47,139 nucleotides of DNA from an uncultured Planctomycetaceae bacterium (GCA_964487655.1 CAZASB010000002.1:1-47139); one strand, 5' to 3'. Counted from the first letter of the stretch, positions 11,658 to 42,398 are shown. Made by a program: numbers and translations. The notes: a model not told the origin generated them from the letters alone.

Positions 11658-12040
11658 CGGTACACCTGCGGCAAGACGGGCGGTTTTCGGGACGTCGGAC
11701 TCGCGAGCCTGACGCGCACATCAGTATCGACGACCGGCGACTGCGGGTCAACATGCGCGGGGGCTGGTACCTGAAGCGGGAGGACCACAATGGGACGCAA
11801 GCGTAAAGAACGGCAGCAGGCGCATGGGTCGGCCTGACACGCCGTCTCAAAACCGGGACGGAAGGTGCGCAGAGCCGATCCGTCGAATAACTGAGGCGAG
11901 CCACTACTCGTCCGACGCGCGAAAGAAAGAGACAAGGCTTAGAGACAAGCGACCTGTCTCAACGTCGCTCGGCAATGCGTGGTCTTTGGGCCTCACGGAA
12001 GCGGGCCACATCGACTCGATAAGCCGCAAGCCGGGAAGAC

Positions 12041-12703
12041 TTACCAGCCAAACAGCCACCCCCAGAACCCGCCACCATCGCCGCCGTTGCCGCCGCCGTT
12101 GCCGCCGCCGTTGCCACCACCGTTGCCACCACCGTTGCTACCACCGTTGCTACCACCGTTGCCGCCACCGTTGCCACCACCGTTGCCGCCACCGTTGCCA
12201 CCACCGTTGCTACCACCGTTGCCGCCACCGTTGCCACCACCACCACCTCCGGAGCCACCTCCGTTGCCACTATTTGAGTCTCCATCGGAGTCTTCACTGG
12301 AACTATCGTCGGCATCGCTGGTCGCGTCGTCGCCCATGTCGGTGCCCGTACCCGTACCACCGGAACTGCCGTCGGCATTGTCGGTTTGGCCGGTGCCGCT
12401 TCCACCCGAAGCGTTCGAGTCAGTCTGACTGGCACCCGAGGCACCGCCGCCAGACGAGTCAGACGAACTGCCGTTCGCCGGAGTTTGCGGCGTAATTCCC
12501 GCGCCGCCGAGCCGAGTGTGATTGGTAAGCTGCCGCGGATCGCCCACCGCGACGGCGGTGGAAGCGAGTTCTTCGGACGCGTTACGCCCGAGCTGGATGA
12601 CCGTGACAATGATGGCCAGCGCAACCACGCCAAGAACAAAGGCCATTTCGGTCGTTCCGATCCCACGGCGACGAATTGGATGACATAGACCCATATTTCT
12701 CAT
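12041..12703 (-). CDS. Flp/Tad-type prepilin-like protein with long Gly/Asn/Ser/Asp-rich C-terminal extension
   Basis: The ATG at 12703 is preceded by GGAG 7 nt upstream. The N-terminus RRRGIGTTEMAFVLGVVALAIIVTVIQLGRNASEELASTAVAV aligns residue for residue with the Flp pilin pattern G-xxxx-E-[YFM]-hydrophobic helix-LG-x-N (compare Caulobacter PilA, ESGATAIEYGLIVALIAVVIVTAVTTLGTNLRTAF). About 150 aa of low-complexity sequence follow, ending GGDGGGFWGWLFGW. The ORF-track N-terminal extension to 12931 is discounted. Confidence 0.55.
   Translation of the reverse strand: MRNMGLCHPIRRRGIGTTEMAFVLGVVALAIIVTVIQLGRNASEELASTAVAVGDPRQLTNHTRLGGAGITPQTPANGSSSDSSGGGASGASQTDSNASGGSGTGQTDNADGSSGGTGTGTDMGDDATSDADDSSSEDSDGDSNSGNGGGSGGGGGGNGGGNGGSNGGGNGGGNGGGNGGGNGGSNGGSNGGGNGGGNGGGNGGGNGGDGGGFWGWLFGW
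12086..12241 (-). repeat. Coding tandem repeat, 13 x 12 nt (GTTGCYRCCRCC on the + strand = G-G-[G/S]-N on the coding strand)
   Basis: Thirteen head-to-tail 12-mers can be read directly: gttgccgccgcc x2, gttgccaccacc x2, gttgctaccacc x2, and so on. They encode NGGG/NGGS units in the tail of the 12041-12703 gene. Confidence 0.9.
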
Positions 12704-12890
12704 GTTATTTCTCCACAATACGTGACCCACACAATACTTTTCTTCAAGCCTAGCTTGCCCTGGCGGGGCGTCACTTCGCTGACACGTCGCTTCCAGCTTT
12801 TCCCGGTTCTCGTATGGACACTTATCCGGTCCGTAGGGTATGATAACTGCCGTAACCCTTCCGTCATTCTTGCTTCCGGGTGTTCTTCCG

Positions 12891-14042
12891 ATGGCTACCA
12901 CAACCTTTTTAGAGGGAAGTGCCACCCGCACGTGGGGTGGACATCCGGCCGTTCATTGTTGCGACGAATTGATTGCCCGATACAAGCAAATCCTCGATCA
13001 GCAACGATTGAGTTGGACGGAACACCATCAGTTGCTTCGCGTACTGGGTTCCGGCGGTCAGGGCGTCGTGTACTTGAGTGAACGGCGCGGCACGGACAGT
13101 TTCACGCTGCCGGTGGCCGTAAAGGTCTTCTCGCCGGAGCGGTATGAGGACGAACGATCGTACGACGAAGCAATGGGTCGCATGGCCCAGGTGGCCGCTC
13201 ACGTGGCCCAAATCCAGCAGGACAACCTACTCGATGTCCACAACTGGATCGACCGAGAGCGCATTCGCTTGATGGAGATGGAGTGGGTTGACGGGTTCGA
13301 CCTGAAGCAACTACTCACCACGAAGATGCTCGAGTGGATTCACTACCACGTGAGCAACAAGCGGTGGCGGTACATCAACCAGGTGATTGTAACGGCGGGG
13401 CCGATCCAGCCTCGCGTGAAGCCAGGCGTTGCGATTGCGATTGTGCGCGACTGCCTTGCCGCGCTGGCCGCGTTGCACCGGCATGGGATCGTTCACGGCG
13501 ACCTGAAGCCGTCGAACATCATGCTCAAGCGGACGGGAAACGCGAAGATCGTCGACTTGGGGTCGGCGTTCGAGATGGAGGATGTGCCGGGCCGGCGGAG
13601 TTGCACGCCTACCTATGCCGCCCCCGAGGTCCTCGATGGCGAGGCTTGCACGCCGCGCAGCGACTTGGCCAGCCTGGGGTATGTGCTCATTGAAATGCTG
13701 TCGGGTTCATCGCCTTTCGCCGGCTTGAAGAGCTACCAGGAACTTCTGGAGGCGAAGCGATTTTTGGCCCAGCGGCTTGCCCGCATCCTGCCGGAAGAAG
13801 TCGTGTGCAATGAGCTTCTGATGAGCTTTTGTCGAGGATTGGTGGCTCCGGATCCGTCGCGCCGCTTCCCCAGCGCTGAAGCGGCCGAGCTGGTGAAGGA
13901 GGGCGCGGCCAGTTTCCACCGACAGTTGATCAAGGGCGACCTGGCCAGCGAATACGACAACGAAATTCGCCTCTGGCTCGAGGAACTCGAGTGCTTGGGC
14001 GAGGACGGCGCGGGATCACCGCCGGAACAAGAGCAGTCATAG
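12891..14042 (+). CDS. Ser/Thr protein kinase (Hanks type, soluble)
   Basis: G-loop GSGGQGVVYL, VAVKVF lysine, catalytic loop HGDLKPSNIML (non-RD), DLGSAF, TPTYAAPEV. ATG at 12891. The gene is divergent from the Flp-like gene across a 187-bp spacer. Confidence 0.8.
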   Translation: MATTTFLEGSATRTWGGHPAVHCCDELIARYKQILDQQRLSWTEHHQLLRVLGSGGQGVVYLSERRGTDSFTLPVAVKVFSPERYEDERSYDEAMGRMAQVAAHVAQIQQDNLLDVHNWIDRERIRLMEMEWVDGFDLKQLLTTKMLEWIHYHVSNKRWRYINQVIVTAGPIQPRVKPGVAIAIVRDCLAALAALHRHGIVHGDLKPSNIMLKRTGNAKIVDLGSAFEMEDVPGRRSCTPTYAAPEVLDGEACTPRSDLASLGYVLIEMLSGSSPFAGLKSYQELLEAKRFLAQRLARILPEEVVCNELLMSFCRGLVAPDPSRRFPSAEAAELVKEGAASFHRQLIKGDLASEYDNEIRLWLEELECLGEDGAGSPPEQEQS

Positions 14043-20883: not shown

Positions 20884-21480
20884 ATGAGCCGAACCGCGAT
20901 CCTCTCCATTGTCGCCGGTTGGCTTGCCCTGATCGCTTTGCCAGTGGCAACCGTTGCAGACCAGGCCCAGCGCCCGAACATCCTGTTTATCATGGCCGAC
21001 GACCATGCGGCCCAATCGCTTTTCTGCTATGGAAGCTACCGGAACAAGACGCCGAACCTCGACCGGTTGGCCGAGCAGGGGGTGTTATTCACCAACTGCT
21101 TTTGCACCAATTCGATTTGCGGTCCCAGCCGCGCGACCATCCTGACGAGCAAGTGCAGTCACCTGAACGGATTCGCTCGTAATTCGCACAAGTTCGACGG
21201 CAGCCAACAAACAGTCGCCAAGCTCATGCAAGCGATCGGCTACCAGACGGCCATGATTGGTATGATCAACAAGCACTATGGCGTGCGCACCGATCGGTAC
21301 AAGCTAATCTACTTCCATGAACTCGATGAGTGGGATCTGTACGATTTGCAGGAGGATCCGCGCGAACTGAACAGTGTTTACGGCGATCCGGCCTACGCCG
21401 CAGTGGTACAGGAGTTGAAGCGGGAATTGACTCGGTTACGCAAGCAGTACAAAGATGACGACAAAGTGGCGGTGCGGTAG
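20884..21480 (+). pseudogene. Sulfatase remnant with large in-frame internal deletion
   Basis: The N-terminal 125 aa are a normal sulfatase start: signal peptide, [37 protein letters not shown]. This is fused directly to the family's C-terminal 70 aa ([27 protein letters not shown]). The central roughly 280-300 aa, including GKWHLG, are missing. The junction lies near 21253-21275. Confidence 0.7.
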
Positions 21481-32410: not shown

Positions 32411-33730
32411 ATGGCGAAACTTACAACAACGTTGCGCACCACCGATTCGAAAGAAGGTAACTTCGAACGACTCAAGCAACGCATCCATAACAAGCTGGTC
32501 GACAAGCTCGACTTGAGCCGTGTGGGTGAGTTAGAAGGCGATACGCTGCGCCGGGAAATCCGGCTTGTCGTTGAGCACCTGTGCGACACGCAGGACGTGC
32601 TGCTCAACCGTAACGAGCGAGAACGGTTGATCGAGGAAGTGCTCGATGAGACTTTCGGGCTCGGTCCACTTGAGATGCTTCTGAAAGACGCGACGATCAG
32701 CGATATCCTGATCAACGGTCCGAGAAACATCTACGTTGAACGTCGCGGAAAGATGGAGAAGACGACGGTCGCCTTCCGCGACAACGACCACCTGATGCAG
32801 ATCATCGACCGCATCATCTCAAGAGTGGGACGCCGGGTCGATGAAACCTGCCCCATGGTCGATGCCCGCATGATTGACGGATCGCGCTTCAACGCGATCA
32901 TCCCGCCCTTGGCGCTCGATGGGGCGGCCGTGTCCATTCGTCGTTTTGGCGCAAATCCATTGAAGCTCGAGGATCTGTTGAACTATAAGGCGTTCACGCC
33001 GGAAATGGTCATGCTCCTGGAAGGGGCCATCAAGGCGCGGTTGAACATCCTTATTAGCGGTGGGACGGGCTCCGGCAAGACGACACTGTTGAATACCCTG
33101 TCGAGCTTCATCCCGAACACGGACCGTATTGTCACGATTGAAGACGCGGCGGAACTCCAGCTCCAGCAGGACCACGTCGTGCGACTGGAAACACGACCGG
33201 CCAATATCGAAGGCAAGGGCGAGATCAAGGCTACCGATCTGGTGCGCAACGCCCTGCGAATGCGGCCCGAACGCATCATTATTGGCGAATGCCGCGGCAC
33301 GGAGGCGCTCGATATGCTCCAGGCCATGAACACGGGCCACGAGGGCTCGCTTACAACCATTCACGCGAACACTCCGCGCGACGCCATCGCCCGACTCGAA
33401 ACCATGATCATGATGGCCGGCTTCGAACTGCCGCTGAAAGCCATGCGCGCGCAAATCGCCAGTGCCGTCGACCTAGTCGTGCAAGCGTCGCGACTGCAAG
33501 GCGGCCCGCGGAAAATTACGTACATTACCGAGATTGTCGGCATGGAGCAGGACACTGTCGTCATGCAGGACATCTACCGTTTCGACAAGAAGGGACTGGA
33601 CGAGACCGGACGAGCGTACGGGCAGTTTCATGCCACCGGAGTCCGCCCCAGTTTCATGGACCGGCTTGAATCTGCCGGCGTTCGACTTCCCGCTAGTGCC
33701 TTCCGGCAACGCGTCATGATGGAAGATTAA
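32411..33730 (+). CDS. cpaF: Tad/Flp pilus assembly ATPase CpaF/TadA
   Basis: Walker [14 protein letters not shown], Asp box [10 protein letters not shown], Walker [12 protein letters not shown], His box [13 protein letters not shown]. Confidence 0.9.
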
Positions 33731-33753
33731 CCCCATACAGCAGGCACGCGTCC

Positions 33754-34719
33754 ATGACTCCCACTCTCTTGATTGGTATTGCCGTATTCGTCTTCGTGGC
33801 GGCGCTTGTTGGCGGCTTGTCGCTTCTGATGCGAGAACGGGAGAGTTCGGTCGTCGAGGACCGGCTTGCCATGCTCACGGGCATGGGAGGCTCTCGAGAC
33901 GGGCTCGAAAAGGAGAAAAGCGTTCTCTCGCAACCGCTCGACGAAGAGCCGGGGATATTCGACAGTTTCTTCACCCGGTTTGGAAACGTCAGCTTGCTGC
34001 TTGAACAGGCCGATACCTCGCTCACACTCACGAAACTGGTCCTCATTTCCGCGGCGATAGCCGGAGCGGGATTGCTCTTTGGAACAGCTCTTGGAGTCCA
34101 TCTGGCGCTGCTGCCGATCGTCGGCGTGGTTCTGGGGGCGTTGCCTTTGATGTGGATTCTCTGGCGGCGCAAGCGCCGGCTGAAACAGTTCGCCGCGCAA
34201 CTGCCTGACGCGCTCGAAATGATCGCTCGCGGACTGCGTTCGGGACAGAGTCTCGGCTTCGGGTTCAACTGTGTGAGTGACGAGATGAGTGATCCGATCT
34301 CGACTGAGTTCCAGCGGGCATTCGAGGAGCAAAACCTGGGCGTGCCGCTCGAGGAAACACTGCGCGACCTCAGCGAACGCATTCCAAACCTGGATTTGAA
34401 GTTCTTTGTCACGGCCGTCATTCTCCAGCGTCAAACCGGCGGCGACCTAGCCGAGATCCTTGACAAGATCGGCGCGCTCATCCGGGACCGGTTTCGTATC
34501 TGGGGACAAGTGCAGGCATTGACGGGCGAAGGCCGGCTTTCCGGCGTCGTGCTCCTGGCCTTGCCCTTTGTGCTGTTTTTCGCCGTGTATCAGCTCAATC
34601 CGGAGTACCTCATGGTCCTCTTCACCGACCCGATGGGCAAGCAGATGCTGGCCATTGCCATCATCATGCAGGTGGTAGGGGCCCTGGTTATCCGGAAGAT
34701 TGTCAACATTCGGGTCTGA
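33754..34719 (+). CDS. tadB: Tad pilus platform protein TadB (T2SS-F domain)
   Basis: N-terminal TM segment. T2SSF-type domain LPDALEMIARGLRSGQSLGFGF...GVPLEETLRDLSERIP. C-terminal TM pair. Confidence 0.8.
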   Translation: MTPTLLIGIAVFVFVAALVGGLSLLMRERESSVVEDRLAMLTGMGGSRDGLEKEKSVLSQPLDEEPGIFDSFFTRFGNVSLLLEQADTSLTLTKLVLISAAIAGAGLLFGTALGVHLALLPIVGVVLGALPLMWILWRRKRRLKQFAAQLPDALEMIARGLRSGQSLGFGFNCVSDEMSDPISTEFQRAFEEQNLGVPLEETLRDLSERIPNLDLKFFVTAVILQRQTGGDLAEILDKIGALIRDRFRIWGQVQALTGEGRLSGVVLLALPFVLFFAVYQLNPEYLMVLFTDPMGKQMLAIAIIMQVVGALVIRKIVNIRV

Positions 34720-34747
34720 CCGATTTGGAAAGCGATGTGGGTTCAGT

Positions 34748-35722
34748 ATGACCGTTCTCGCCAATAGCTTGCTCAACTTCGAATCGTTGCTACCACTGGC
34801 CCTGTTCGGCACGTTCGCCGCCGTTGCATGGTGGGTGCTGGAACTCGTGGCCACGGGGAAGCCGCGCGCGTTGGAACGCCTTGACGAGCTGAAAAACCCG
34901 CACAAGCGTAGGCCCGAGTCCGCCGGTGCCTTGAAGAAGCAGGATGCCATGACGCGCGTGTTGGAGAAGGCCACCCCGGCCTTTGCCAAACCGCTGCAAC
35001 CGAAGAACGAAGCCGAGATGAGCAAGCTCAAGATGAAACTCGCCAACGCCGGCTTTCGGAGCGAGACGGCGGGTAGTATCTTTCTGGGACTGAAGTTCGC
35101 TGGGCTCGTGCTTGGCTTGTTCCTCGGCGGCGGCACGATTCTCGGACTCGCCGGCGTCAGTCAGAAGACACTTGTCGCCGCGGTCGCCCTGGCGGGACTC
35201 CTCTTCTACTTACCCGGATTCGTGGTAGGATTCATCGGAAGCAAACGCAAACAGGCCATCTTCCTGGCTCTGCCCGACGCGCTCGACCTGATGGTGGTGT
35301 GTGTGGAGGCGGGCCTTGGACTCGATCAGGCCATGCGCAAAGTCGCGGACGAGATGAAGAAGACCTACCGCATCCTGTCCGCCGAGTTCGCCCTAGCCAA
35401 CTTTCAACTGCAAATGGGCCGGCCCCGCGCGCAGGTGCTCCACGAACTGGGATTGCGAACGGGAGTTGCCGACTTACGCAGCCTTGCCGGCGTTCTTATT
35501 CAGGCCGACAAGTTCGGCTCCAGCGTTGCGTTGGCCCTACGCGTGCAGAGCGACTCGATGCGCACGCGCCGCCGCCAAATGGCTGAAGAAAAAGCCGCCA
35601 AGACGGCCGTGAAGCTGATCTTTCCGCTCGTCCTCTTCATTTTTCCAGGTATCTTCGTGATTCTCGTCGGTCCCGCCGCCATCACCATGGTGCGCGAGAT
35701 GTTCCCGAAAATGAGCGGATAG
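34748..35722 (+). CDS. tadC: Tad pilus platform protein TadC (T2SS-F domain)
   Basis: ATG at 34748. LPDALDLMVVCVEAGLGLDQAMRKVADEM...GRPRAQVLHELGLRTG and C-terminal TM helices. Confidence 0.8.
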   Translation: MTVLANSLLNFESLLPLALFGTFAAVAWWVLELVATGKPRALERLDELKNPHKRRPESAGALKKQDAMTRVLEKATPAFAKPLQPKNEAEMSKLKMKLANAGFRSETAGSIFLGLKFAGLVLGLFLGGGTILGLAGVSQKTLVAAVALAGLLFYLPGFVVGFIGSKRKQAIFLALPDALDLMVVCVEAGLGLDQAMRKVADEMKKTYRILSAEFALANFQLQMGRPRAQVLHELGLRTGVADLRSLAGVLIQADKFGSSVALALRVQSDSMRTRRRQMAEEKAAKTAVKLIFPLVLFIFPGIFVILVGPAAITMVREMFPKMSG

Positions 35723-35768
35723 CCCGTAGATTGGTCGCCGTGGACGGCCGAGGCAAATTCCATCCGCT

Positions 35769-36641
35769 CTAGGAAACATCCTCGTTTTCGACACCGTGGA
35801 TGGCGCGCAGGAAGTGCTTGACGGAGGGGCATCGCTTGACGGGGTTGGACACGAGGCAGGAGGCAATGGCCTCGGCCAGCTTGGGATGGACGTTGGGCCG
35901 ATACTGGAAGATGTCAGCCGGCGGCTGGTCGTGCGTCATGGCCGCCATGCCGGTCGTGCCGCGGTTCCAAGGCAATTCACTCGTCAGAAGTTCAAACGCC
36001 GACACCCCGAATGCGAAGATATCGACCCGTTGGTCCGTCGGCTGCCGACGAACCAGTTCGGGAGCCATGTAGTTGGGCGTGCCGGTACGGTTTCCCGGCA
36101 TCATGAACGGCTGCGTCGCCGGCACGGTCAGGCCGAAATCGATGAGCTTGATATTCTCTCGATCCTCGCAGACCAGCAGATTCCGGGGACACACGTCGCG
36201 GTGGATGTATCCAGTCTTGTGGACCACGGCCAGCGCGTCCGCCGCCTGCCGAATGAACCGAAGGCGGCGCCCTTCGAGCATCGGGTCGCGGCTGACGAGT
36301 ACGGCGTTGAGGTTTGGCCCGTCGATGAACTCCATGACGAGATACTGCTCGTTCTTGGTCGTCAGTCCGAACTCGAACGTCCTGATGATCCGGGGATGAT
36401 CGAACTCCGTAGCGATTTCACCTTCGGTCGGCTTGACGAGGCCCTTGAATCGCGATTCAAACGCAAGGGTCTTCTCTCGGTCGAGGATCTTCAGACCGAC
36501 GATTTGGTTGGTCCGCAGGTCGCGCGCCATGTAGAACTTCGACATAGTGCCCATGGTAGCCGCGCGCAGCAGCGCGAAGCGGGACGTAACGTCCAGCTTG
36601 CCGCCCGAGAACATCGATCGAACACCGTCAAGGAAGCCCAT
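35769..36641 (-). CDS. Hanks-type protein kinase with atypical catalytic loop (HRDVCPRN)
   Basis: IVGLKIL lysine, LVMEFIDG hinge, YIHRDVCPRNLLV, IDFGL, GTPNYMAPE, DIFAFGVSAFELLT. The first ATG is at 36641. An alternative GTG at 36656 overlaps the accD stop (GTGA). Confidence 0.75.
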   Translation of the reverse strand: MGFLDGVRSMFSGGKLDVTSRFALLRAATMGTMSKFYMARDLRTNQIVGLKILDREKTLAFESRFKGLVKPTEGEIATEFDHPRIIRTFEFGLTTKNEQYLVMEFIDGPNLNAVLVSRDPMLEGRRLRFIRQAADALAVVHKTGYIHRDVCPRNLLVCEDRENIKLIDFGLTVPATQPFMMPGNRTGTPNYMAPELVRRQPTDQRVDIFAFGVSAFELLTSELPWNRGTTGMAAMTHDQPPADIFQYRPNVHPKLAEAIASCLVSNPVKRCPSVKHFLRAIHGVENEDVS

Positions 36642-36652
36642 GATAGCCACCG

Positions 36653-37501
36653 TCACTTGCCACAGTAGTCGATCGCGCGGGCGATCTCACTTTGAAGGTC
36701 CTTTCGCCGTACAATTCGGTCGACGAATCCATGCTCCAGGAGGAACTCGCTGGTTTGGAACCCCTTGGGCAATTCAATTCGGATGGTGGCCTTGATCGTG
36801 CGCGGACCGGCGAAACCGATCAGGGCCTTTGGTTCGGCAAACACCAGGTCGCCGAGAGAGGCGAAGCTGGCGGCCACGCCGCCCATGGTCGGGTTGGTCA
36901 GAACAGAAATGAACAGGCCGCCTGCCTGATCGAACCGGGCCAGCGCGGCGGAAACCTTCGCCATTTGCATCAGTGAGAACATGCCCTCGTGCATGCGAGC
37001 GCCGCCGCCCGATCCCGAAATGATGATCAATGGCAATTGCCGTTCGGTCGCGCGTTCGATGGCTCGAGTGAGTTTCTCGCCAACGACCGAACCCATGCTG
37101 CCCATAATGAAGGCGGAGTCGGTTACGGCAAACACGACCCTTCGCGCGCGAACCATGCCGGTGCCCGTCAGGGCGGCATCACGCAGACCGGTTCGTCGCT
37201 GTTCGTCGACCAAGCGTTCCCTGTAGGGCTTTTTGTCGACGAAGTCGAGGGGATCGGCCGGTTCGAGGTCGGCGTCCCATTCCTCAAAAGTGCCTTCGTC
37301 GAGTACTTGGCGAACGCGTTCCGCGGCGGGAACGTACCAATGGTAATCACATTGCGGGCAGACGCCGAGACGTCGTTCGGCCTCGCGCCGAAAGATGATC
37401 TGCTGGCAGCCGGGGCAGCGCATCCAAAGGCCTTCCGGCACACCTCGCTTCGGCCGCTTGGCCACGTTCCGCAAACTCTTCGATTCAGTATCGGACGACA
37501 T
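36653..37501 (-). CDS. accD: Acetyl-CoA carboxylase carboxyltransferase subunit beta
   Basis: Zn-ribbon [26 protein letters not shown] and carboxyltransferase core [10 protein letters not shown]...[12 protein letters not shown] at 37501, with a GTG alternative at 37510. Confidence 0.9.
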
Positions 37502-39090: not shown

Positions 39091-42000
39091 CTACTTGATA
39101 CCCGTTGCCTCGGGCTTATTCTCCCAATTATAGGTGGCTGCGAACTCGGAGGGGGTGTGGTTCTCTTGGCCATCGGACGTTGCGACAACGTACACCAGCG
39201 TTTCCAGTCTGGAGAGATCTGCCCGATAAAACCCCTCGCTTGGACTAATTGCCAGCCAGCGACCCCCTCTCATTGGGCACAGTAAGAGCCGAGCATCACT
39301 GCTGCCCACGCCTCGCAAGGCCAGTAAGCTGCCTTCAACGGACCGGACGACCATTGTACCGTCCTGCGATATTCCGCGTAAGCTCCGACTCGTGCATGAC
39401 CCCCGCGCGGTCCCAAGGGTGTTGCCCTGCATGCCTGCTTCGCGGAGGCATCCCTCTTCGCGTGTGAGCAGTGTTGCATCGGCGGGTTTCCAATGAGCGA
39501 TGCCGCCATAGCTTCCCGACGTGAGCAGCACCGGGCCCTCGGACTCCCAGAGCATGTGCCACACACATCCGTGGCCGCTGTCCCAGTCGTGAACCAACTG
39601 CCGTCTGTCCACGTCGACCAGCCGAACACGTGCGTCCCAGGCCGAGAAGGCGAGGTAATGGCCATCGGGCGACCACGCCACGGTGCTCACGACGGAGGGG
39701 GTCTCCAGCGGAAATTGGGCCCATTCGTCTCCCGTTGCGGTGTCCCAGATACGGCAGAGGCCATGCTCTTCCGCCGTGGCCAGCCACCTTCCGCAAGGCG
39801 AGAAGGCGGTGTCCAGCACATGGCCCTTGCACGATATTTTTTTGAGAGTCTTGCCAGTCTCGGCATCCAGGACTAGCAGAGAGCCGTCGGTGTGGCCGAC
39901 GGCGAATTGCCTGCCGCCGGGCTGCCATGCCATGACCCACGCCTGGCTTTGGCTCGTACGCACGGAGAACACTTGCCGACCTTCAGCGAGGTTCCACAAG
40001 CGGCTCCAGCCGGCCGAGTCGCCCACCAGCAGTAGCGGGCCGATGGGCGACCATGCGGTGGTCGTGGTCCGCGTCGCGGCAGCCGAGCGGAAGAGTCTGG
40101 TTTCTTCCGAGCCAGGCTGGTAAGTTCGCAGTTCGCCGTTGGACATGCCGCAGTAGGCTACGGCGACGTTGCGCGACCATGCGACCGCAGTGGCAGCGTT
40201 GGGCGTCATCAAGGGGCGAGATATCTTCTTCCGCACGTCGCCATCCCATAGGACGGCGAACTCCATGCCTTGCTTGCCGCCACTGACCGCGAAAAACCAT
40301 TGCCCGTCACTCGACCAGCCGAGCCCGCTCACCGGCTGGCTTGCCGCGCTCTCTTTCCGCGGCCGGAACCCTTCGGCCCGATCCCAGATGGTGACGTGGC
40401 TCCCGCCGCCGCACGAGGCGAGCCGTGTTGCGTCGGGCGACCAGGCAAGCCGCCGAATCGGCCCTGGCTCGGCGCCGTTTAATTGCTGGAGGGGTTTCCA
40501 GTCGGGCACACTCCAGATGCGGATGGTGCTTCCTTCGTCGCCGGAGGCCACCAGGGCGCCGTTGTCAGAGAAGCGAAGCGAGGTTACGGTCGTCGCATGG
40601 CCTGCCAGGACGTCGAAAAGCTCGCGAGTGCCGGCGCGCCAAAGGCGGATTTCACCGTTCCCGTGCCCACTGGCCAGGATGCCCTCCGGCGAGCAATCCA
40701 GGCAAGTCGCTGCGTCGGTTTCGCCAAGAGTCGCCTCCCAAAGCAGCCGGCCCGTCTCCACATCCCAAACCCGGAGCGAACCGGCGGCAACGGCAATCTC
40801 CTGGCGGCAAGGGAGCCACGCAATTGCACGAATCGGATTCGGCTCCACGAACATCCACGCCAGGTCGCCCGTGCCTATTCGCACAATCCGCACGCATCCG
40901 ACCGCATCGCCGACGGCAAGCAGGCGCTGATCGGACGAAAGGGCCAAATGCGTCACGGCGGCTCGGCCCCCACGCGTTTCGAGCGTCCATCCCTTTACGC
41001 CGGGAAGCGGTGGAGGGTGTTGTATCATCGCCGACTGGTTGAGCCGGACCGCCGGGGTGTCCTGCATCGATACGAACCCGTGTTCGGTGCCCGAACGTGG
41101 CAGACCAACCGCCAGAGCGGCAACGATCGCACCGATTCCAACCGTGAAAATCGCCAGCCAAAACCAGCGGCGCAACCCTTGTCGTCGCCAGCGCACTGCC
41201 AGACGTCCGTGCGTCGGTCGGTCGTATCGGGTTGAACCGGCGGTCCAAACCGGCGTGTCGACACCAAGCGGATCGGGAGAATGCGAACGGCTCAACTGAG
41301 GCAAGCGACCAACCAGTGCCGACAAATCGGAACCGGTGGACCAAGCGCCAAGCGTCTGCTCCACCTCGGTCATATCCGCCGGCCGGTCGGCGGGACGTTT
41401 GGTCAACATGCGCCGCAGGAGCTGGACCAGACCCCGGGGCAGATCGGCTCGCAACCGGTTGATATCGAGGATCCGTTCGGTTGCGTGCGCCAGGAGCTTT
41501 CGCCCGAAGGTGTTGTGTTTGGTGTCTGCAAACGGCGCGTTTCCAGCCAGCAGATAGTAGAGCGTGCAGCCCAGGGCGTAGATGTCGGACCGCGAGTCGG
41601 CCTGACGCGGGTCTTGTCCTTGTTCGGGCGCGAGGTAGTCGGCGCTACCAAGGATTTGGTCCGTAATCGTGTGGCCCGGCTCGGTGCCGTCACCGGGGGC
41701 AAGCCGGGCGATTCCCAGGTCGAGTAGTTTGACCGTTCCCTCGTGCGTAATCATCAGATTCGACGGCTTTACATCGCGATGCACAAGACCGTTCTGATGG
41801 GCGTGGTGAAGGCCGCGAGCGGCCTGGACAACCACCTCGCACGCGTCCGAAACCCGGAGCGGACCGAGTTGGTCCACCAGTTTCCGGAGGTCGGCGCCGA
41901 CGATCAGCTCCATGACCAGGAAATGTCGGCCATTGTCCTCGCCTGCGTCGTAAGCACGAACCAGGTTCGGATGGTCCAACCGGCCGATGGCTTCCATTTC

Positions 42001-42240
42001 GTCGAGAAACCGCGCGAGGGAATCGCGACGTTCGATCCGATCGGCACAGAGCAGTTTGATGGCGGCCGGTCGTTTGAGCCGGACGTGCATGGCCCGGTAG
42101 ACCGTACCCATTCCACCGGCCCCGAGTCGTTCGAATAACTCGTACTGCCCCAAGGTTTCGGCATCCTCCAAACCCTGGTCGCGTCTGCCCGCGAGGGCGC
42201 TGGTCTGACCGGCTGACTTTGGATGGCTATCGATTGGCAT
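39091..42240 (-). CDS. Ser/Thr protein kinase with transmembrane segment and C-terminal WD40 beta-propeller(s)
   Basis: GAGGMGTVYRA, AAIKLL, HRDVKPSNLMI, DLGIAR, GSADYLAPE. TM segment WFWLAIFTVGIGAIVAALAV. Many WD-like repeats follow (LASGHGNGEIRLW, VASGDEGSTIRIW, LATAEEHGLCRIWD). The start is ATG 42240 or the upstream ATG 42312. Confidence 0.8.
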   Translation of the reverse strand: MPIDSHPKSAGQTSALAGRRDQGLEDAETLGQYELFERLGAGGMGTVYRAMHVRLKRPAAIKLLCADRIERRDSLARFLDEMEAIGRLDHPNLVRAYDAGEDNGRHFLVMELIVGADLRKLVDQLGPLRVSDACEVVVQAARGLHHAHQNGLVHRDVKPSNLMITHEGTVKLLDLGIARLAPGDGTEPGHTITDQILGSADYLAPEQGQDPRQADSRSDIYALGCTLYYLLAGNAPFADTKHNTFGRKLLAHATERILDINRLRADLPRGLVQLLRRMLTKRPADRPADMTEVEQTLGAWSTGSDLSALVGRLPQLSRSHSPDPLGVDTPVWTAGSTRYDRPTHGRLAVRWRRQGLRRWFWLAIFTVGIGAIVAALAVGLPRSGTEHGFVSMQDTPAVRLNQSAMIQHPPPLPGVKGWTLETRGGRAAVTHLALSSDQRLLAVGDAVGCVRIVRIGTGDLAWMFVEPNPIRAIAWLPCRQEIAVAAGSLRVWDVETGRLLWEATLGETDAATCLDCSPEGILASGHGNGEIRLWRAGTRELFDVLAGHATTVTSLRFSDNGALVASGDEGSTIRIWSVPDWKPLQQLNGAEPGPIRRLAWSPDATRLASCGGGSHVTIWDRAEGFRPRKESAASQPVSGLGWSSDGQWFFAVSGGKQGMEFAVLWDGDVRKKISRPLMTPNAATAVAWSRNVAVAYCGMSNGELRTYQPGSEETRLFRSAAATRTTTTAWSPIGPLLLVGDSAGWSRLWNLAEGRQVFSVRTSQSQAWVMAWQPGGRQFAVGHTDGSLLVLDAETGKTLKKISCKGHVLDTAFSPCGRWLATAEEHGLCRIWDTATGDEWAQFPLETPSVVSTVAWSPDGHYLAFSAWDARVRLVDVDRRQLVHDWDSGHGCVWHMLWESEGPVLLTSGSYGGIAHWKPADATLLTREEGCLREAGMQGNTLGTARGSCTSRSLRGISQDGTMVVRSVEGSLLALRGVGSSDARLLLCPMRGGRWLAISPSEGFYRADLSRLETLVYVVATSDGQENHTPSEFAATYNWENKPEATGIK

Positions 42241-42398
42241 GGGAAATGCTATTGCATGACTCGATTTTCCTCTGGCACGATACACTTCCTGACAGCTTAT
42301 GTCAACCTGCAAGACAGGCTAAGAAAAAGATACCCATGGCTTACCCGTGGGAGTTTCACGACACGTCGGTGCCGGTGATGAACAGACCGCAGGCCATG

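Follow-up and report, generated by a model that had tools for sequence, protein, structure and literature searches.

What kind of protein begins like a minimal pilin of the Tad (type IVc) system and then runs on for some 150 residues as a low-complexity tail? The question is raised by an open reading frame (ORF) of 220 amino acids (aa) at positions 12041–12703, minus strand, of a 47,139-nucleotide (nt) stretch of DNA from an uncultured Planctomycetaceae bacterium (GCA_964487655.1, CAZASB010000002.1:1-47139; hereafter the window, meaning the whole stretch). A first-pass annotation of this DNA had described a prepilin-like leader (RRG/IGTTEM, the slash marking the cleavage site), Glu at position +5, a hydrophobic helix, an LG-x-N motif, 13 NGG[G/S] units and an aromatic end, all of which are confirmed by translation. 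The comparisons described here indicate that the gene is real and is a rare, patchily distributed member of a rare planctomycete family, and that the core of its product is a divergent branch of the Flp superfamily. We give about even weight to the proposal that the product is a prepilin-like protein of a divergent Flp type (type IVc, Tad), which a Tad system would cleave and assemble. The parts of the gene are listed below in window coordinates; L083 is an orthologous locus described further on, dN/dS the ratio of non-synonymous to synonymous substitution rates, AF2 the AlphaFold2 model, pLDDT its predicted local distance difference test score and TRF Tandem Repeats Finder.

12041–12703, minus strand: coding sequence of the 220-aa Flp-like tailed protein, with its stop codon at 12041–12043 (translation, in-frame homologues, L083 DNA alignment, dN/dS)
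12662–12703, minus strand: basic leader, aa 1–14, MRNMGLCHPIRRRG, net charge +4, ending in Gly14 at a predicted prepilin-peptidase site, G/IGTTE
12500–12661, minus strand: Flp-like core, aa 15–68, with Glu19 (+5), hydrophobic alpha-1 helix, invariant Gly39 (LG-x-N) and the motif TAxGVGDPxQL-NH-R
12266–12499, minus strand: acidic Gly/Ser/Thr/Asp linker, aa 69–146 (composition; AF2 block mean pLDDT 40–57, no secondary structure)
12077–12265, minus strand: Asn-Gly repeat block, aa 147–209, 13 NGG[G/S] units (TRF, codon table, regular-expression count)
12044–12076, minus strand: C-terminal aromatic motif, aa 210–220, GGGFWGWLFGW, with G215-x-x-x-G219 within it
12710–12714, minus strand: Shine-Dalgarno-like GGAGA, 7-nt spacer to the ATG at 12703 (from the sequence; GGAG aligned in L083)
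12840–12867, minus strand: sigma-70-like promoter match ATGACG-16-TATCAT, 5' of the Flp-like gene (consensus match only)

The N-terminus displays the features of a class III signal, namely a basic leader, Gly at −1, Glu at +5 and a hydrophobic run (MRNMGLCHPIRRRG/IGTTE(5)MAFVLGVVALAIIVTVIQL). Cleavage would fall after Gly14, for a predicted mature protein of 206 aa compared to 40–60 for Tad pilins. The hydrophobic stretch is 24 residues long and is followed by L38-G39-R40-N41. AF2 places one helix at residues 17–54, where the mean pLDDT of 10-residue blocks reaches 95, and a second, short one at 56–60, assigns no secondary structure to residues 61–213 (block means 31–57), and ends with a short marginal helix at 214–217 (pLDDT about 50). 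The 152-aa tail (residues 69–220) contains neither Lys nor Arg; Gly makes up 44% of it, Ser 15%, Asn 12% and Asp+Glu 10%. It has a net charge of about −14 over residues 69–150, and is predicted to be disordered. A polyglycine-II or beta-helix fold for the NGGG repeats was considered and is unsupported (10-residue block mean pLDDT 31–48). Comparison of the AF2 model with the PDB using Foldseek returned no match, which is the outcome to be expected when a single helix is joined to a disordered chain.

The repeat in the tail (TRF 12084–12270: period 12 nt, 15.8 copies, 87% matches) is open in multiple frames on both strands, and the frame of the gene is therefore settled by its homologues, in which the frame of the 12041–12703 ORF is kept. 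The closest relative retrieved together with its DNA is P0006, on the 1.7-kbp contig L083, which is divergent to a kinase 94% identical to the one beside the gene in the window, identifying L083 as the orthologous locus. In the DNA alignment of the two loci the ATG, the GGAG, the reading frame and blocks of intergenic sequence are all kept, so that the homologues point to neither of the alternatives named in the first-pass annotation, a start elsewhere or a different conserved frame. A longer, GTG-started ORF of 296 aa is ruled out, as the stop-to-stop frame in L083 opens only 14 codons upstream of the ATG. The intergenic blocks (window 12704–12890 against L083:1213–1404) include ATCATACCC, GTCCATAC and AAGCTAxGCTT and may be shared promoter or operator elements; the second hexamer of the promoter match overlaps the block ATCATACCC. 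No Rfam family, and thus no riboswitch, was matched in the window or in the region 5' of the gene. Between window and L083 the dN/dS of the gene is 0.29–0.38, with 0.29 for aa 15–68, compared to 0.028 for the kinase, and on this comparison the Flp-like gene is under purifying selection, yet changes about 10 times faster than the neighbouring kinase at non-synonymous sites.

Two side observations belong to this region. Spurious ORFs arising from the 12-nt repeat lie within window 11824–12666 (a 223-aa Arg/His/Cys-rich, a 149-aa Pro-rich and a 235-aa Val/Ala/Thr-rich ORF) and could be mis-called by gene finders. The contig L083 (JAXMIB010001335.1) is filed under a 'Patescibacteria group bacterium' metagenome-assembled genome, yet it carries a kinase with 94% identity to that of the window, which is of the Thermoguttaceae type; mis-binning of the contig is probable.

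How widely is the protein distributed? An exact-sequence look-up in a collection of 15 billion proteins found no record of it; a word-index search with the full length returned only low-complexity matches to unrelated Gly/Asn-rich proteins, and the same kind of search with the N-terminus returned no match. Exhaustive phmmer comparison of the N-terminal 76 aa with 1.84 billion representatives gave 13 matches at E ≤ 1e-3, 12 of them genuine (best 1.9e-19); the other, P0008, is a repeat of non-ribosomal peptide synthetase carrier domains and was discarded as spurious. The 12 true relatives share the leader, the helix and the GVGDP motif, most have a low-complexity Gly-rich tail and several a Trp-rich end, and further members laid out in this way came from a metagenome scan. 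It is a very rare family, whose members in public data are unannotated or labelled 'hypothetical'.

Most full-length members of this tailed subfamily display the same four parts, and this architecture recurs in independent lineages. The leader is basic and ends in R-x-G, with R12, G14 and E19 (+5) at least 90% conserved; the core consists of G-x-x-x-x-E, a hydrophobic helix, an invariant Gly and TAxGVGDPxQLxNH-R. The tails, of 43–177 aa, are of low complexity, Gly/Asn/Ser-rich and often acidic, with repeats such as (NG)n, NGGG and GNSNAG, and the ends are short, hydrophobic or aromatic and contain GxxxG (GWLFGW, ILGWLFGW, WFWGWFGW, WGWLGGWFGW, GGLLGRLLGMLFS). Ends related to GGGFWGWLFGW are found in P0005, P0007, P0009, P0011, P0012, L084 and L085/86, while P0017 and P0039 have different ends without the aromatic motif. 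The first-pass annotation had proposed a search for homologues as the way to learn whether the tail is conserved or hypervariable, and the answer is divided: composition and end motif are conserved across the family, whereas length and sequence are hypervariable.

Variation in tail length is visible between two near-identical alleles from sister metagenome samples (L085:2047–2544 and L086:6001–6546), which differ at one single-nucleotide polymorphism and by an in-frame indel of 48 nt (4 x 12 nt) within the Asn-Gly repeat. Repeat slippage is the suggested cause, with collapse of the repeat during short-read assembly as the alternative. The Trp-rich end motif was sought in 1.3 Mbp of planctomycete loci and found on family members only, and a role as a general sorting tag was therefore rejected.

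Is the N-terminus related to Flp pilins? The link is transitive, passing through short planctomycete proteins of about 60 aa (P0021, P0033, P0037 and others, '...RRGISxVQW...TKLNQTATDVxNPxxLTTRFGS') that are homologous to the first ~68 residues of the window protein. We used three profiles: A5, built from these short proteins only, with the window protein and its subfamily excluded; A4, built from the tailed subfamily; and A2, a mixed profile of the family. Among about 12,000 six-frame ORFs, A5 finds the window ORF at E = 4.6e-10, and hhalign aligns A4 with A5 over 60 columns (99% probability, E = 2.5e-18). PF04964, the Flp pilin family in Pfam, is in turn matched by 11 of the 12 short A5 proteins (best 3.6e-6, all below the gathering score of 32.2 bits) and by the tailed members P0009 (7.9e-6), P0012 (0.0024) and P0011 (0.13); among the short proteins no other Pfam family is hit as often. 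The family profile also recovers planctomycete proteins already named 'Flp/Fap pilin component' or 'Flp pilus assembly pilin Flp', a number of which come with precomputed PF04964 hits. Two Tad pilin structures from Caulobacter, 8U1K (E = 0.0065) and 8U2B, are the best matches of A2 in the PDB, in a register that places G14 at −1, E19 at +5 and LGRN of the window protein over LGTN.

Other pilin-like families were not matched. PF07811 (TadE) gave no match at E ≤ 10 to the window protein or the 13 relatives scanned, and a TadE-like pseudopilin identity is unsupported. PF07963 (N_methyl, of type IVa pili and type II secretion) does not match the window protein; it does match a DUF1559 protein in L084. 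Scans of the window protein with Pfam and NCBIfam gave noise only (e.g. TrbK at E 0.05–0.4), and no NCBIfam model matches any relative. On these alignments, the core is linked transitively to the Flp superfamily, of which it forms a divergent branch, and is not a TadE-like pseudopilin. The Flp-like N-terminus of the first-pass annotation is thus upheld by the chain from the A5 match through hhalign and the PF04964 matches of the short proteins to the PDB register, but not by any direct PF04964 match.

Among solved structures, the nearest relatives of the window protein are the 45-residue Tad pilins of Caulobacter; by sequence, they are the short planctomycete proteins. Tad pilins have been described as minimal, with 40–60 residues, a single helix and no C-terminal or outer domain (PMC10710030). 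The window protein resembles Caulobacter crescentus PilA (8U1K, 8U2B; PF04964) in its basic leader ending in Gly, Glu at +5, continuous hydrophobic helix and LG-x-N; the in-register alignment covers about 39 residues of the 45-residue mature pilin, and AF2 predicts a helix over the same span. Genes for a Tad ATPase and platform proteins lie in its window. It differs in a predicted mature length of 206 aa, of which some 150 form a disordered tail that has no counterpart in Tad pilins, in having Met at +6 in place of Tyr, in the lack of a Pfam match of its own, and in a gene outside any tad operon.

The short planctomycete proteins share the post-helix motif TA-x-[GD]V-x-[DN]P-x-x-L and, like the tailed forms, are encoded by stand-alone genes away from tad loci. 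They differ in stopping directly after the conserved motif without a tail, in having Gln at +5, and in their own synteny. Three such genes with Gln at +5 (L089:7959–8144, L090:2454–2639 and the P0035 locus) occupy a conserved position, flanked by a PSCyt/PSD1-DUF1501 pair on one side and surE on the other. In type IV pilins, residue +5 is nearly always Glu.

A second group of relatives carries a tail of another kind. Proteins labelled 'Flp/Fap pilin component' (Anatilimnocola aggregata P0036; P0016, P0018–P0020, P0022 and P0026) also combine an Flp-like core, a low-complexity tail and a conserved terminal motif, but their tails are about 45–55 aa long and Ser/Gly-rich rather than Asn/Gly-rich, end in [ILMV]-Cys-Pro where the others have the Trp-rich GxxxG motif, and follow a core with Gln at +5. 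With P0029 added, this sister subfamily (P0016, P0018–P0020, P0022, P0026, P0029 and P0036, the last at L082:10001–10330) comprises proteins of 109–119 aa with Gln at +5, and the tail always ends in [I/L/V/M]-Cys-Pro. Annotated genomes thus already contain tailed Flp proteins, under the label 'Flp/Fap pilin component'. Our literature searches found no description of tailed Flp pilins with either kind of tail, nor of planctomycete Flp pilins. The first-pass annotation did not recognise this as a described pilin architecture; that view fits the literature searched (PMC10710030), but has to be qualified by the existing database labels of the Ser/Gly-tailed relatives.

An Flp-type N-terminal module carrying a C-terminal extension is also known from polymorphic toxins, in which Flp-pilin N-termini are fused to C-terminal toxin domains (PMC12605009). 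There the cargo is a folded enzyme domain, whereas the tail studied here is a disordered repeat without a detectable domain. Gly-rich class II microcins differ in that the window protein has no double-glycine leader and its gene no adjacent exporter or immunity genes.

Does the genomic setting indicate a function? Two further features are needed here.

12891–14042, plus strand: Ser/Thr protein kinase, divergent neighbour of the Flp-like gene (Pkinase 3e-35)
32411–35722, plus strand: cpaF-tadB-tadC, Tad ATPase and two platform proteins (T2SSE 4e-65, T2SSF twice)

The gene is flanked in the window by a sulfatase gene and the kinase gene. The divergent arrangement with the kinase, and a distance of about 20 kbp to the only Tad genes, were noted in the first-pass annotation and are borne out, with a gap of 187 bp to the kinase and 19.7 kbp to cpaF-tadB-tadC, the only Tad genes found in the window. 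These three genes encode a candidate assembly machinery for the protein; no other pilin and no TadE/F was detected in the window, and no TadZ/CpaE near them. The pairing with the kinase is seen only in the window and L083 and is absent at the other members, so kinase linkage as a family trait was rejected. Synteny with 80 genomes that bear the kinase stops at about 12874–12891. The two small kinases, one beside the Flp-like gene and one beside tadC, are distant relatives, with 30% identity over 118 aa.

Tailed members elsewhere adjoin housekeeping genes of various kinds: 5' of P0011 and P0012 lie ScpA and a metallo-beta-lactamase-like gene, 3' of P0009, P0012 and L086 a HemY-like amine oxidase, and other neighbours are genes for a DUF1559 protein (L084), a DUF4350 protein (P0005) and HicAB (P0007). 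The short Flp-like genes adjoin surE and PSCyt/PSD1/DUF1501 genes. As the tailed and short forms examined both lie away from tad loci, a stand-alone location is the norm throughout this planctomycete clade and carries little weight in either direction.

Some further observations concern these neighbourhoods. A 58-aa ORF directly 3' of P0007 (L093:1098–1274) begins like a prepilin, RRGRAG/AATVDYVLILAVVLP, and has no Pfam match; a HicA/HicB toxin-antitoxin pair follows it. Within window 32411–36656, a 295-aa Ser/Thr kinase gene lies convergent to tadC and directly after it, and the window contains three Pkinase genes in all (12891–14042, 35769–36656 and 39091–42312), the last encoding a 1073-aa kinase-WD40 fusion. 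A 198-aa ORF at 20884–21480 matches positions 1–152 of 301 of the Sulfatase profile and then the end of SGSH_C, and may be a truncated or internally deleted sulfatase gene.

If the protein is handled by a Tad system, the positive leader would hold the N-terminus in the cytoplasm, and a TadV/CpaA-type prepilin peptidase would cut after Gly14, leaving IGTTE(5)M. The hydrophobic helix would lie in the cytoplasmic membrane and would then be polymerised by CpaF/TadB/TadC into, or onto, a Tad-type filament. Since the C-termini of Tad pilins form the filament surface (PMC10710030), the tail would project outwards from the fibre or the membrane, as a flexible acidic brush with hydrophobic aromatic tips, and its role would most likely be adhesion or surface coating. 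A 15-kDa tail on each subunit would be very crowded, so that an alternative or minor pilin appears as likely as a major one.

A number of findings weigh against Tad handling, and several of them favour the main alternative, in which an Flp-descended protein no longer forms pili. The window protein has no PF04964 or PF07811 match at E ≤ 10 in Pfam or NCBIfam, whether scanned at full length, with its N-terminal 70 or 76 aa (the former being the check proposed in the first-pass annotation, which thus came back negative) or as the 296-aa extension. All PF04964 matches in the clade fall below 32.2 bits (maxima 31.3 for P0040, 26 for P0009 and about 25 for the short forms), and the tailed subfamily alone reaches the Tad pilins of the PDB only at E = 0.15–0.18. 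At +6 the protein has Met and not the Tyr of the Flp motif (G/XXXXEY), and its relatives have L, W, V or M, never Tyr. No prepilin peptidase or secretin was detected in the 47-kbp window, and an orthologous kinase (73–93% identical) is present in 80 genomes of Thermoguttaceae and other Pirellulales with no Flp-like gene upstream. Three more points are shared with the alternative: no family member examined adjoins tad genes; tails of 150 aa on every subunit would make it sterically difficult for a filament of 45-residue helices to pass through a secretin, and would be awkward for the filament itself; and the closest orthologue, P0006, has Ala rather than Gly at −1, which weakens the argument from the peptidase site. 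According to this alternative the protein, cleaved or not, would be anchored in the cytoplasmic membrane by its N-terminal helix, with the tail spanning the periplasm and the aromatic GxxxG tip docking in peptidoglycan, in the outer membrane or on a partner protein, and would work as a flexible tether, spacer or sensor. The positive-inside leader and 24-residue hydrophobic segment fit a signal anchor equally well, and the conserved short hydrophobic C-terminal motif resembles a membrane- or protein-docking element. However, R12, G14 and E19 are conserved at 90% or more across the subfamily, a pattern that a plain anchor would hardly need to preserve, the core and a full mature Tad pilin can be aligned from end to end, and the short relatives (~45–50 aa when mature) have no obvious role other than as pilins. 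We consider a non-pilus tether somewhat unlikely, though a tangible possibility.

Two further explanations dispense with the filament altogether. The protein could be a released glycine-rich peptide, either an adhesive or matrix component or a microcin-like bacteriocin, whose prepilin-like leader would serve only as a signal for export and processing. The tail does resemble glycine-rich adhesive and antimicrobial peptides, in composition only, the gene is patchily distributed and fast-evolving, and P0015 has a weak YxzE-like bacteriocin match (E = 0.008, below the cut-off). Yet no dedicated exporter, immunity or modification genes lie beside any member examined, the hydrophobic helix has the length needed to remain in a membrane or filament core, and the protein lacks both a double-glycine leader architecture and, in its tail, any Cys or heterocycle-forming residue; we regard a released peptide as highly unlikely. 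Nor is it credible, except at the margin, that the ORF is non-functional, a chance product of a GC-rich 12-nt tandem repeat or a decaying remnant. Such an origin could account for the openness of the repeat region in several frames on both strands, the absence of the exact protein from the 15 billion searched and the absence of the gene from the 80 related loci, but it is largely refuted by the N-terminal 76 aa, which the repeat does not reach and for which there are specific homologues (down to E = 1.9e-19), by the conservation of start codon and Shine-Dalgarno sequence with L083 at a dN/dS of 0.29–0.38, and by the recurrence of the four-part architecture in independent lineages.

Returning to the Tad-handled prepilin, a bolder form of this reading, which we put forward as speculative and consider unlikely, is an undescribed 'bottle-brush' pilus: a Tad-type filament of ~45-residue helical cores bearing disordered acidic Asn-Gly bristles of 50–180 residues with aromatic GxxxG tips, whose bristle length would be tuned within populations by slippage of the 12-nt repeat. 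Asn-Gly dipeptides are the most deamidation-prone sequence known, and in such a fibre they could additionally age or cross-link it. Fibres of this kind could be among the uncharacterised adhesive fibres of planctomycetes. More generally, a conserved family that retains the pilin core and adds a long, repeat-variable disordered tail with a conserved aromatic end would mean that large, flexible appendages can be carried by Tad-type fibres or by membrane proteins derived from Flp, and it would provide a specific candidate for the surface fibres and adhesion of planctomycetes, in which such structures are poorly understood.

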